Sequence record: MT884006.2
Reading direction: 5' to 3' (one strand)
Length of the DNA: 64,000 nt
Source of the DNA: Escherichia phage vb_EcoM_bov9_1
The position numbers were made by a program, and so were the translations under genes. Under the pieces are notes generated by a model. The model worked only from the letters and a program-made list of their open reading frames with translations. It was not told where the DNA came from and searched no databases. This document shows positions 41,104 to 63,572 of the stretch, piece after piece (the first letter of the stretch is position 1; the number at the start of each line of letters is the position of its first letter).

Positions 41104-41574
41104 TTAATCATGTTTCCACACCCCATCGGTATTTGACCAAAGTCGCTGATTATCTGATCCTCGCCACAGCTTTTTAGTCGGAAGATTTTTCTCATACTTC
41201 CCATCAATAATAACATCAACATATTTAAGCATTTCTAGTTGTTTAATATCTTCAAACTTATATCCTGTCCACAACCAAATGCTTTTATTGGGATAAAGAT
41301 TTTTTACTGTTTGAACCACAGAGTGAATCACGTCTCTGTTATCAGGATAAAGAGGGTCACCTCCGGTTATAGTTAATCCTTCTATATAATCATTATTCAA
41401 ACATTCAATTAATTGTTCTAGTGTTTCACCAGTGAATGGAATACCATTTCTAGCATTCCATGTTGATTTATTATAACACCCTTCGCATTTATGCAAACAA
41501 CCTGTAACGAAAAGAACGACCCTGCATCCAGGGCCATTCACAAAATCGCAAGGATAAAATCTATCATAATTCAT
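41104..41574 (-). CDS. nrdG: anaerobic ribonucleotide reductase activating protein NrdG (radical SAM)
   Basis: 156-aa ORF; CxxxCxxC cluster (CLHKCEGC); size matches T4 NrdG. Confidence 0.9.
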   Translation of the reverse strand: MNYDRFYPCDFVNGPGCRVVLFVTGCLHKCEGCYNKSTWNARNGIPFTGETLEQLIECLNNDYIEGLTITGGDPLYPDNRDVIHSVVQTVKNLYPNKSIWLWTGYKFEDIKQLEMLKYVDVIIDGKYEKNLPTKKLWRGSDNQRLWSNTDGVWKHD

Positions 41575-43388
41575 TGGTGTTTAACCCTATGCATGATTTC
41601 TTTATTTTTACCGAGATTAAATCCGCGTTCGTTCGGATTTCCCAAATAACCACATGTTCTTCTTATTGTGTTCATCTTTTTAGGATCAGTTTCTCCACAA
41701 ATAGAACAAACAAATCCGTTTTCAGTAGGAGTCATTTCATGGGTACTTCCACATGTAAAACATTTATCTACTGGCATATTAACACCAAAATAATCTAAAT
41801 GTTGTGCAGCATAATCCCATACGGCCTCAAGGCCTTTCAAGTTATTTTTCATATCAGGAAGTTCAACATAAGAAATGTGACCACCTGTCGCAATGAAATG
41901 ATATGGCGCTTCACGAGAAATCTTTTCAAACGGAGTAATATTTTCTTCTACTGAAACGTGGAAACTGTTAGTGTACCAGCCTTTATCGGTAACATCTTTT
42001 ACACTTCCATATCTTTCTGTATCAAGTTTACAGAAGCGATAACAAAGGTTTTCAGCAGGAGTAGAATACAAACTAAAAGCAAACCCAGTTCTTTCAGTCC
42101 ACTGTTTAAGACGAGCATTCATTTTAGTTAAAATTTCTCGTCCAATATCACGACCGACAAGAATATTCAATTCGTGAATACCAATGTATCCTAGAGACAC
42201 TGAACTTCTGCCATTTTTAAATAACTCAATTATATCGTCATCAGGTTTAAGACGAACCCCGAATGCACCTTCTTGGTAAAGAATAGGAGCAACAGTTGCT
42301 TTAACTCCTTTTAAGGAACTAATTCTACACATCAAAGCTTCAAAACACAAATCCATTCGCTCATTGAACAATTCGATAAATTTCTGTTCATTGAACTGTG
42401 TTCCAATATAAGAATCTAATGCGATACGAGGAAGATTCAGTGTTACAACACCGAGATTATTACGTCCATCAAGAATTTCATTACCGGTTGAATCTTTCCA
42501 CACACTCAAAAAACTGCGGCAACCCATTGGAGAAACAGGAATAGATGAGCCGGTGATAGCTTTATTGTTCTTAGCTGAAATAATATCAGGATACATTCTT
42601 TTGCTTGCGCACTCTAAAGCAAGCTGTTTAATATCATAGTTCGGATCGTCTTTATAAAGATTAACACCTTCTTCAACAAACATAACAAGCTTAGGGAAAA
42701 TAGGAGTTATCCCATCACGACCAAGACCTTTAATACGATTTTTCAGAATTGCTTTCTGAATCATTCGTTCAGTCCAGTCAGTTCCTGTACCAAATGTAAT
42801 TGTTACAAAAGGTGTTTGTCCGTTTGAACTAAAGAGAGTATTTACTTCATATTCATAAGCTTGGAATGCATCGTATACGTCTTTTTCTGTTTTAGACTGG
42901 GCATAATTCAACGCATCAGTGATTTGCCATTTTTCTGCATCCTCAATATGTTTTGCATAGGTGCGTTTAACATAAGGAGAAAGTACTTTATCTACATTCG
43001 CAAAAGTCGTTCCGCCATATTGATGGGAAGCAACCTGTGCAGTAATTTGCGCCATAATTGCAGTAGCAACTCCAATTGATTTAGGAGTTTCAATCTGTGC
43101 ATTACCTAGCTTAAATCCGTTTTCAAGCATTCCTTTTAAATCTACTAAACAACAATTAGTAAATGGAAGAGCAGGGGAATAATCAATATCGTGGAAATGG
43201 ATAATTCCGCTTTCATGCGCTTTCATAATAAAAGACGGGACCATATTTTTGGCAATGTGTTTAGACACAATACCAGCCATAAGGTCCCGTTGAGTTGGAA
43301 AAACACGAGAATCTTTATTAGCATTCTCGTTTAAAAGGTCTTTATTAGTTTTATGAATCAATCCTTCAATTTCTTTTTCAATTGTCAT
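41571..43388 (-). CDS. nrdD: anaerobic ribonucleoside-triphosphate reductase NrdD (glycyl radical enzyme), uninterrupted
   Basis: 605-aa ORF; C-terminal zinc ribbon CFTCGS...CSICG and glycyl radical motif RTCGYLG; continuous frame, no intron. Confidence 0.93.
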   Translation of the reverse strand: MTIEKEIEGLIHKTNKDLLNENANKDSRVFPTQRDLMAGIVSKHIAKNMVPSFIMKAHESGIIHFHDIDYSPALPFTNCCLVDLKGMLENGFKLGNAQIETPKSIGVATAIMAQITAQVASHQYGGTTFANVDKVLSPYVKRTYAKHIEDAEKWQITDALNYAQSKTEKDVYDAFQAYEYEVNTLFSSNGQTPFVTITFGTGTDWTERMIQKAILKNRIKGLGRDGITPIFPKLVMFVEEGVNLYKDDPNYDIKQLALECASKRMYPDIISAKNNKAITGSSIPVSPMGCRSFLSVWKDSTGNEILDGRNNLGVVTLNLPRIALDSYIGTQFNEQKFIELFNERMDLCFEALMCRISSLKGVKATVAPILYQEGAFGVRLKPDDDIIELFKNGRSSVSLGYIGIHELNILVGRDIGREILTKMNARLKQWTERTGFAFSLYSTPAENLCYRFCKLDTERYGSVKDVTDKGWYTNSFHVSVEENITPFEKISREAPYHFIATGGHISYVELPDMKNNLKGLEAVWDYAAQHLDYFGVNMPVDKCFTCGSTHEMTPTENGFVCSICGETDPKKMNTIRRTCGYLGNPNERGFNLGKNKEIMHRVKHQ

Positions 43389-61124: not shown

Positions 61125-61302
61125 CTAAACGAATAGGTTCATGAATGCCATATCCTTGAACAGAAATTTCTGTCGTAGGATAAATTCCATCAATATCACC
61201 CATATTCCAGGCTTCATTAAATTGCTGTTCGCCTGAATTACTAAACCACTCGGCGAAAGCATTTAGCACATCTTTAGAACCTTCAATAATTATCTTTGCC
61301 AT
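61081..61302 (-). CDS. hypothetical protein
   Basis: 73-aa ORF. Confidence 0.4.
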   Translation of the reverse strand: MAKIIIEGSKDVLNAFAEWFSNSGEQQFNEAWNMGDIDGIYPTTEISVQGYGIHEPIRLVEYDLCTGEEVKYD

Positions 61303-61664
61303 TACAAACTCTCGGTGAAGGTACGAGCAATAACGTCGCGCTGCTGTTCCGGAGTCAGAGAGTTAAAGCGAACTGCATAACCTGATACACGGATGGTCAG
61401 CTGCGGATATTTTTCCGGATGCTTAACTGCATCTTCCAGAGTTTCACGACGCAGAACGTTAACGTTCAGGTGTTGACCACCTTCAATTTTAACTGTAGGC
61501 TGTTGCTCAATTTCAATTTCACGGGCATGCAAACCGTAGAAAATTTCTGGGTCTACAAAAGAGTCCTCTTTAAAGGTTTTAGAGACAATAATTCGTGCTT
61601 GAATACCATCTTCAAAATAAATAGTACCTTTATGTGTGCCTTCAAGAATTTGATATGCTTTCAT
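61302..61664 (-). CDS. autonomous glycyl radical cofactor-like protein (GrcA/YfiD-like C-terminal module)
   Basis: 120-aa ORF; C-terminal about 60 aa ([61 protein letters not shown]) carries the RVSGY glycyl radical motif; DNA of this part is visibly more GC-rich than the surroundings. Confidence 0.8.
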
Positions 61665-61671
61665 ATAAACC

Positions 61672-61998
61672 TCAATTAGAAAATAAATTTATCCAAGATT
61701 GTTCTTTAATTAAAAATGGCTCAGAATCATATGCCATTAAACTTTGGGTGATTAGTCCTTTAAAAGGTCCATCAATAAATTCCATGGTAAAATATGGAAT
61801 TTTATTCATTAACTGTGCGTTAGGAGCAGTGCACAAAACTCTGCATCCTTTGAATACACCTTTTTGTAATTTGTATTGCTTGGGATAAAATTCGCTTAAA
61901 ATGTTGTTATTTGCCAAAATTTCAAAATGATTTACCAATTTATTTTTAATAGTTTTTGGCGAAAAATAGAGATATTCGAAAAGCTGTGTGTCTGTCAT
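61672..61998 (-). CDS. hypothetical protein
   Basis: track ORF 61672..62052; start set at MTDTQ where it overlaps the upstream stop (TAATG). Confidence 0.4.
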
Positions 61999-62672: not shown

Positions 62673-63146
62673 TTATTTGAACGATTTAACGTACTGAATA
62701 GAACCTTTACTATTTACAAAGGCAATTTTACCATTTTTATTATACATGGTAGCAGTACGTTGATAACCATAAGTTTGTTTACCAGATTGATAACCAACTA
62801 ATGCGAAATTATCTTCACCCATTTTATTCTGTTTAGCGCGAATGCGTTCATGACCATGTGCCATAAGAACCTTAGCATCACCAGTTGCAATGGATCTACG
62901 AGTTTTTTCATCTTCAACTGTATTAACAAAGTCGTCAAATGAATCAAATTTAGCATGAGATTTATTATACAGTTTTCCATCTACTGCATAATTATATCCC
63001 TGTACATCCATCTCAACTTCTGTACCATCATCCAATACAGCAGTGATTTTTTGACCTTTTTTAAATTTCAAAAGATCAGTAAAAGATTCAGCAATAATTT
63101 GAGAATTAATAGCTGCTTCAGTGATAAATTCTTGATATGTTTTCAT
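62673..63146 (-). CDS. internal-protein-like protein with capsid targeting sequence
   Basis: 157-aa ORF beginning MKTYQEFITEA, matching the N-terminal capsid targeting sequence of T4 internal proteins as I recall it. Confidence 0.55.
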   Translation of the reverse strand: MKTYQEFITEAAINSQIIAESFTDLLKFKKGQKITAVLDDGTEVEMDVQGYNYAVDGKLYNKSHAKFDSFDDFVNTVEDEKTRRSIATGDAKVLMAHGHERIRAKQNKMGEDNFALVGYQSGKQTYGYQRTATMYNKNGKIAFVNSKGSIQYVKSFK

Positions 63147-63155
63147 ATGTTTCCT

Positions 63156-63572
63156 TTAAATGTAAATATTTTTACCGTAATACTTATACCAATGTGGTTT
63201 CATTAAAATTTTTTCATCAAGTCGTTGTTGACTCAATTTAATAGCTGATTTGCATGGATTATAATCATTTTTCCATTCTACTGGAATATCGCTGATGTCA
63301 GGAACTTCAGTATCTTTTATACTGAACCCTCGTTTTAAGCATTCCGTTATAATGTCCGATTGACGCTTTCGCAAAAATTCTAACTTATCGTAAAAGAACG
63401 TAACATGACCAGAACCTAAAATAAACTCGGAAGATATTTTAAAATCTTTAACGCGCTTACCGTTTGCCACATGCTTACGAACTATACCAAAAACACGTGG
63501 CAATTCACGGTATTCTGCGATTAAATGTTGATCAGCAAGTTCAGATACTAAAGTCAAATTAATACGAGTCAT
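63156..63572 (-). CDS. denV: endonuclease V (pyrimidine dimer DNA glycosylase/AP lyase)
   Basis: 138-aa ORF; sequence recognisably T4 DenV. Confidence 0.93.

Follow-up and report, generated by a model that had tools for sequence, protein, structure and literature searches.

Only two proteins are validated as spare parts for glycyl radical enzymes, in both cases for pyruvate formate-lyase (PFL): Y06I of bacteriophage T4 and YfiD of Escherichia coli, the latter also named GrcA (PMC8683613). PFL-activating enzyme (PFL-AE) puts a glycyl radical on Y06I or YfiD, and the complex of the activated protein with oxygen-cleaved PFL regains activity (PMC8683613); for the spare-part activity of T4 Y06I, the same source cites Wagner et al. 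2001. The piece that is replaced is the C-terminal glycyl radical domain of PflB (1H16, residues 697–759), part of a 760-aa enzyme, and the bacterial spare part (6OWR; TIGR04365) is a stand-alone domain of 127 aa encoded on the chromosome beside ung. The N-terminus of YfiD is disordered, helps in radical installation and is dispensable afterwards (PMC13450708). PFL-AE is reported to accept a peptide with the loop RVSGYAV and to reject the ribonucleotide reductase (RNR)-type RVCGYLG, so activases read the loop (PMC13450708). In T4, the gene for Y06I (NP_049730) is vs.6, annotated under the name “autonomous glycyl radical cofactor GrcA” and among the few open reading frames (ORFs) kept in all 6 of the T4-like genomes that Nolan et al. 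2006 (PMC1524935) set side by side. The NCBIfam models GrcA2 (80 aa) and GrcA3 (78 aa) describe the radical domain alone, so spare parts lacking an N-terminal region exist; residues 57–120 of the phage protein described below match both models at scores under their cutoffs. As for exchange between a phage gene and its host counterpart, an example among host-phage mosaic auxiliary metabolic genes is psbA of cyanophages, whose host and phage copies reportedly recombine within the gene.

The locus described here lies in a stretch of 64,000 nt, referred to as the window, from Escherichia phage vb_EcoM_bov9_1 (MT884006.2). The gene occupies 61302..61664 on the minus strand, as placed by the ORF list, the T4 vs.6 annotation and a match to phrog_1209, and it encodes a small stand-alone protein of 120 aa (about 14 kDa) that is essentially one glycyl radical domain. 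This protein is identical to T4 Vs.6/Y06I at 118/120 residues (the two differences are Q54P and R73H); the T4 gene has the same size and a similarly E. coli-like 3′ half, and the order of genes around it, vs.8-vs.7-vs.6-vs.5-vs.4, is that of T4. The ORF is 100% identical, at the same coordinates, to that of Escherichia phage vb_EcoM_bov10K1 (MT884007.2, Tequatrovirus), and so is the window; hundreds of Tequatrovirus records are 97–99% identical to vs.6, and a megablast search with the gene matched 736 phage records. The window phage belongs to the genus Tequatrovirus, and its gene, orthologous to T4 vs.6/Y06I, is already known along with its activity; this is the T4 YfiD homologue that the first-pass annotation had mentioned. 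The gene itself is thus nothing new, and any interest would lie in its evolutionary pattern.

Profile searches place the protein in a phage subfamily. Pfam Gly_radical (PF01228) scores 67 bits on residues 60–101 (cutoff 22.2), and the phrog_1209 profile matches at full length with 211.5 bits (residues 1–120 of 121). The NCBIfam GrcA equivalog model TIGR04365 gives 154.9 bits, below its cutoff of 170 and compared with 234 for E. coli GrcA, because the N-terminus is divergent; the protein therefore belongs with phrog_1209 and is not a strict equivalog of bacterial GrcA.

The surroundings of vs.6 are compact. The stop of vs.6 and the start of vs.5 share bases (TAATG), and a Shine-Dalgarno sequence, GAGG (61670..61673, minus strand, read from the sequence), lies 5 nt 5′ of the vs.6 ATG and overlaps the end of vs.7. 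A promoter scan at the locus returned promoter and terminator consensus sites around vs.6 at chance level only; since there is no dedicated promoter, vs.6 is probably co-transcribed with vs.8-vs.7. No Rfam match to a structured RNA was found at the locus, and two ORFs on the opposite strand (61419..61679 and 61553..61645), antisense to the conserved coding sequence, were considered and dropped as unsupported. Compared with T4, the neighborhood shows a few other differences: vs.5 has 73 aa in the window and 58 aa in T4, an extra ORF of 157 aa (62673–63146) stands between denV and vs.8, and lysozyme e (63632–64126) adjoins denV (63156–63572) without ipII and ipIII.

Residues 58–120 of vs.6 align with PflB 697–759 with 49/63 identities, collinear to the last residue and with the same loop. 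This Gly loop, RVSGYAV, spans residues 92–98 (61371..61391, minus strand), as located by translation and by the collinear alignment with PflB 697–759 and YfiD, and Gly95 is predicted from these alignments to be the radical site, the counterpart of GrcA Gly102 and PflB Gly734. If function is transferred from T4 Y06I, at 98% identity, vs.6 would be a PFL spare part that works via the host activating enzyme. PflA of the host would install the radical on Gly95, and the activated protein would dock onto host PFL whose C-terminal radical domain had been cut off by oxygen, take the place of the lost domain and restore activity. The output of acetyl-CoA and formate would thereby be maintained in an infected cell that meets oxygen. 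The rescue of PFL, put forward in the first-pass annotation, is the documented activity of T4 Y06I (PMC8683613).

The same annotation also offered a different client, the phage's own anaerobic ribonucleotide reductase NrdD, with vs.6 activated by phage NrdG. Both enzymes are encoded in the window (NrdD at 41571..43388, NrdG at 41104..41574), and NrdD is likewise cleaved by oxygen at its glycyl radical. To our knowledge, there is no family of spare parts for class III ribonucleotide reductases. A role for vs.6 in nucleotide metabolism was speculated on by Nolan et al. 2006 (PMC1524935). The sequence, however, lends the NrdD proposal no support. The loop of vs.6 and its 63-residue C-terminus are of PFL type (49/63 to PflB, 60/60 to GrcA), with RVSGYAV in the place of the NrdD-type R-x-C-G-Y-L-G; the window NrdD carries the loop RRTCGYLG, with the end TIRRTCGYLGNPNERGF..., and its terminus, ...RRTCGYLGNPNERGF..., has no further similarity to vs.6. 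PFL-AE takes RVSGYAV and refuses RVCGYLG (PMC13450708), and Y06I works with PFL-AE and cleaved PFL (PMC8683613). We therefore consider it very unlikely that vs.6 serves NrdD, and keep to PFL as the client. An indirect link is plausible, in which formate from rescued PFL might aid phage NrdD, as formate-dependent class III RNRs consume formate as reductant (PMC13450708).

At the DNA level, the 3′ half of vs.6 is host-identical. Residues 61–120 equal E. coli GrcA 68–127 at 60/60 positions, loop included, as the first-pass annotation had seen, and blastn of vs.6 nt 179–363 against grcA gives 96.8% identity, with a match in all 5,426 of 5,426 complete E. coli genomes. Alignment of the two genes resolves this into a perfect run of 157 nt (61330..61486, minus strand; alignments, megablast and GC), with 0 differences from the A102 allele of E. 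coli grcA, after which the final 25 coding nt hold 6 differences, all of them synonymous. The tract covers codons 61–111, in the glycyl radical domain, plus one flanking base at each end. The clustering of mismatches, 0/155 in the tract versus 6/25 after it, is highly uneven (Fisher p = 4e-6). The stretch after the tract, the last 8 sense codons and the stop (61302..61329, minus strand), keeps the amino acids of GrcA and is phage-type in its codons, with the six synonymous differences falling in ATT, TTC, ACC, GAG, AGT and TTG and the ending GAG AGT. Before the tract, nucleotide identity between phage and host drops below 50%.

The tract also stands out within the window. A megablast search of the whole 64 kb against the 5,426 E. 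coli genomes gives 61298..61486 as the sole match, with no other host-like DNA in the window. The GC content of 61302..61484 is 0.486, whereas the window averages 0.344 (z = 3.7), in line with the first-pass description of GC-rich 3′ DNA on a poorer background, and no further 183-nt stretch in the 64 kb is as GC-rich. The 5′ half of the gene has a GC content of 0.34, and GC at third codon positions (GC3) is 0.22 there versus 0.43 in the 3′ half. Over 180 nt, the 3′ part of vs.6 differs from grcA of Escherichia sp. at 2 positions, of Citrobacter at 13 and of Salmonella at 29. Because E. coli is nearest and Citrobacter and Salmonella are progressively further away, these comparisons point to E. 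coli or a very close relative as the donor, at a time long after the split between E. coli and Salmonella. The host origin and recent date suggested at first reading are thus borne out, with 157/157 identity to E. coli alleles and a GC peak where only the identity of distant homologues and a flat GC profile would have spoken against them. As for other possible donors, the tract DNA is 81% identical to pflB and 95–96% to grcA, so the donor gene is grcA and pflB was rejected; no phage record exceeds 95% identity to Salmonella grcA.

Protein identity is not what carries this conclusion. We compared 80 phage loci (IMG/VR; T4-like, T5-like and RaK2-like jumbo phages) with 80 bacterial species, and in every homologue collected the last 60 residues hardly vary, so only DNA identity is informative and identity at the protein level was rejected as proof of capture. 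Over the last 180 nt, Tequatrovirus and Mosigvirus share 172–177/180 positions with E. coli grcA, compared with 132–148/180 for CC31, RB16/RB43, KP15 and 44RR and 114–141/180 for T5-like, RaK2-like and other phage groups. One could suppose that no transfer took place, and that extreme purifying selection on the protein or mRNA made phage and host DNA converge. The near-invariance of the C-terminal 60 residues is what such selection would produce, and an RB16-like phage differs from E. coli over these residues by 30 synonymous and 0 nonsynonymous codon changes. Those same codons tell against convergence, however: RB16, RB43 and KP15 encode the same protein with 27–30 synonymous codon differences. 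The identity, moreover, follows particular host alleles (E. coli A102 or C102, and the Klebsiella-type alleles L222 and L179 described below) and ends abruptly on both sides. We give convergence next to no credence. The 3′ identity between vs.6 and grcA goes far beyond chance or protein constraint, because other T4-like genera, whose protein is identical or almost so in its C-terminal part, reach only 132–148/180.

Several observations from this survey are of interest in their own right. In L014–L016, RB16-like loci with the coding sequence at 1501–1863, the C-terminal 60 residues equal those of E. coli GrcA and 30/60 codons differ synonymously, an unusually clean case in which a phage protein, obliged to fit a host enzyme, has been under extreme purifying selection. 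Full-length GrcA-like genes also occur in T5-like phages (L045–L070, about 104–122 kb) and in RaK2-like jumbo phages (L027, L029 and L030, 345–357 kb), where they have no host-like tract (114–132/180 to E. coli). Since these T5-like and jumbo enterobacterial phages carry full-length genes too, the spare part is a widespread phage accessory gene. One locus filed as viral, L031:1345–1797 (IMG/VR 2706794630_000006, 19 kb), holds a fully bacterial-type, Yersinia-like grcA, 164/180 to Yersinia L141 and with the same upstream in-frame extension, and probably represents DNA of a bacterium, or DNA adjacent to a prophage, rather than a spare part of a phage.

The N-terminal half of vs.6 (61485..61664, minus strand; delimited by composition, hhalign of the N-halves and phmmer to 6OWR from residue 22) bears on how the host DNA came to be there. 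The first-pass annotation had proposed that the 3′ end of host grcA was recently captured and fused in frame to an unrelated, phage-specific N-terminus, an illegitimate event that would have made a new chimeric gene. The host-identical, GC-rich 3′ half and the AT-rich 5′ half, with its nucleotide similarity to grcA of under 50%, look like such a fusion at first sight. The AT-richness is real (GC 0.34), but the two N-halves are related: hhalign of the phage N-half profile against the bacterial GrcA N-half profile gives a probability of 93% (E 3.4e-7, 47 columns, 30% identity), with part of the score coming from the last 6 residues beside the conserved domain. Likewise, phmmer aligns vs.6 residues 22–120 with residues 28–127 of the YfiD structure 6OWR. 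E. coli GrcA differs from vs.6 in length (127 versus 120 aa) and in the N-terminal 60 residues, which are only about 30% identical, a divergence that fits with the YfiD N-terminus being dispensable once the radical is installed. The phage homologues L021–L026 are visibly intermediate and bridge the two types.

Synteny points the same way. Full-length orthologues without host-like DNA sit in the same place in CC31, RB16/RB43, KP15 and 44RR-type phages, and T5-like and RaK2-like phages have homologues too. Genes vs.4, vs.7 and vs.8 are neighbors of vs.6 in CC31, RB16/RB43, KP15, the Jiaodavirus Kp122 and the Mosigvirus mogra. The end of the gene is also of phage type. Bacterial grcA ends GAA AGC CTG, whereas RB16 and KP15 end GAG AGT TTA, and Tequatroviruses and Mosigviruses other than T4 end GAG AGT (T/C)T(G/A). 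These phage-type terminal codons (the last 3–9) place the 3′ junction inside the ORF, so the tract is an internal patch and the stop-proximal end of the host gene was not captured. A captured and fused gene end is, in light of this evidence, very improbable. By sequence, vs.6 is instead an old, vertically inherited gene of T4-like phages, whose homology to bacterial grcA spans its full length; the N-half homology, the unpatched syntenic orthologues and the phage-type end together imply that this old gene received an internal gene-conversion patch.

Which way the DNA moved can be read from composition and context. Identity by itself has no direction, and a phage segment might in principle have been donated to bacterial grcA genes. 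The bacterial genes, however, lie in conserved synteny next to ung with uniform GC3, and their halves diverge in step with species distance (15.4% and 16.1% between E. coli and Salmonella for the N- and C-parts); the sequence is present, moreover, in every one of the 5,426 E. coli genomes. It is the phage genes that are compositionally mosaic (GC3 0.22 versus 0.43 in the window phage, 0.23 versus 0.60 in Kp122). We regard donation by a phage as extremely unlikely. As grcA is homogeneous and syntenic and the phage genes are mosaic, the direction of transfer is from host to phage.

The best explanation, which we hold with high confidence, is that vs.6 is a spare part, with function taken from T4 Y06I, that bears an internal conversion patch of ∼157 nt from E. 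coli grcA, and that such patching is recurrent. In vs.6, an internal tract of host identity is flanked by phage-type sequence on both sides within one ORF and is marked by a GC step. Homologous recombination (gene conversion) has overwritten the roughly 157-nt internal stretch of the radical domain with E. coli grcA. A likely route, which is conjecture, is that a phage 3′ end invades a host DNA fragment and copies from it, by synthesis-dependent strand annealing with the T4 recombination machinery. The 5′ junction lies where similarity between phage and host begins (codon 61) and the 3′ junction a few codons before the stop, which is the outcome expected of homologous recombination bounded by the extent of homology. 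The cyanophage psbA system is alike in that the phage copy swaps internal segments with the host gene by homologous recombination, giving patches of host identity and a GC shift; vs.6 differs in belonging to an enterobacterial T4-like phage, in its 180-nt target, in patches that equal, base for base, alleles of the species now infected, and in the near-constant boundaries with which these recur. As to whether the patches are selected or neutral, RB16 has the identical C-terminal protein without any patch.

Recurrence is seen within the Tequatroviruses and Mosigviruses. Between the two genera, the N-part differs at 16–17/180 positions and the patch at only 2/155 (p = 0.001–0.003). Two patch variants, A102 and C102, occur in Tequatroviruses and both exist as E. 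coli alleles, the C102 version being 171/171 identical to many E. coli strains and the A102 version matching other strains. The position of the 3′ junction varies too: it lies at nt 155 or earlier in the window phage, at nt 173 or earlier in L004 and mogra, and at nt 176 or later in T4. T4, which carries the C102 version where the window phage carries A102, ends GAA AGT TTG, so its junction is the later one. How many independent conversions took place within Tequatrovirus would have to be gauged from these few polymorphic sites and the junction positions, and recombination between phages together with back-mutation could be the source of part of the pattern.

A longest-run patch test on 27 representative phages, with 81 grcA genes from bacteria as the comparison set, was significant, for this bacterial set, only in the window phage and L023. 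Klebsiella phage JIPh_Kp122 (Jiaodavirus), whose C-part encodes the Klebsiella-type LLDAVEH and has a GC3 of 0.60 compared with 0.23 in its N-part, seemed unpatched until Klebsiella-type grcA alleles from metagenomes were added. To obtain these, metagenomes were scanned for a degenerate pattern of the Klebsiella type, and the hits included loci from phages as well as from bacteria. Phage L175, on a contig of 165,693 bp, matches the bacterial allele L222 perfectly over 158 nt; its sister phage L171 does so over 155 nt (nt 10–164) with another bacterial allele, L179. In each phage the last codons are still of phage type. The flanks of L175 and L171 are Kp122-like phage DNA, and those of L222, L179 and L221 align over about 800 nt with the E. 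coli ung-grcA locus at 78–81%. L222 and L179 are from metagenome contigs, assigned by likeness to GTDB entries to Klebsiella sp. (348/384) and Raoultella sp. (367/384), respectively.

The backbones of these phages are nearly the same and their patches are not, the inverse of what Tequatrovirus and Mosigvirus show. L175 and L171 differ at 3/199 backbone positions and 12/164 patch positions (p = 0.007), and the isolate phiKp_22 differs from Kp122 at 2/199 and 13/164 (p = 0.001). The isolates phiKp_22 and Nispero have runs of 115 nt to L179 and 125 nt to L173, pzk-kv6-1 and Ra_O-2 carry mosaic patches, and 80 INPHARED records of Klebsiella phages are 95–99% identical to the L222 allele. Related phages with nearly identical backbones thus have tracts that match different host alleles (L222, L179 and L173), as independent events would leave. 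Taken together, these comparisons indicate that patching has been repeated, in Tequatroviruses and Mosigviruses with different E. coli alleles and 3′ junctions, and in Jiaodaviruses with different alleles of Klebsiella/Raoultella type. The second significant locus in the longest-run test, L023:1492–1893 (IMG/VR 3300008607_000007, 91 kb, from a human oral metagenome), is a phage GrcA homologue of a different phage group. It has a perfect run of 56 nt (C-part nt 115–170) to grcA L160 of a Haemophilus sp. metagenome-assembled genome, in surroundings roughly 85% identical (p about 0.003 by codon-column shuffling), and may represent a separate event, a short patch that a phage of Pasteurellaceae took from its host.

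Some phages carry a patch whose type does not correspond to the host in their names. Yersinia phages PST and PYps35T, 99% identical to the window, have an E. coli-type patch, and Salmonella phage PSE-D1 has a Klebsiella-type patch (97.1% over nt 1–173 of L222). For Hafnia phage IsaacDaniel, an E. coli-type patch is suggested by T4-type identities to Salmonella and Raoultella grcA rather than by an alignment. It may be that the allele in the patch reveals a natural host other than the one used for isolation.

A broader reading, to which we give even odds, is that the 180-nt radical-domain segment of vs.6 is a recurrent recombination hot spot between strictly lytic T4-like phages and host chromosomes, rewritten again and again so as to carry the grcA allele of whichever host the phage now infects: E. 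coli in Tequatrovirus and Mosigvirus, Klebsiella/Raoultella/Enterobacter-type in Jiaodavirus and possibly Haemophilus in the oral phage. In the searchable literature, which takes in few subscription journals, we found no description of recurrent host-to-phage conversion at vs.6/grcA. A general caution follows from RB16, in which 60 identical residues are encoded with 30 synonymous changes: that a protein nearly equals its host counterpart is not evidence of recent transfer. At the DNA level, vs.6 is a clean and repeatable case of a host allele overwriting a gene of a lytic phage, in a tract bounded by the limits of homology. If general, the pattern would make it possible to gauge the natural frequency of recombination between T4-like phages and host DNA, and would supply a short marker from which the recent host of an isolated phage, or of a contig from a metagenome, could be read. 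Should the hot-spot reading be true, the tract would be a natural molecular record of a recent host species, and would show directly that genes of lytic phages are often converted by host DNA in nature.
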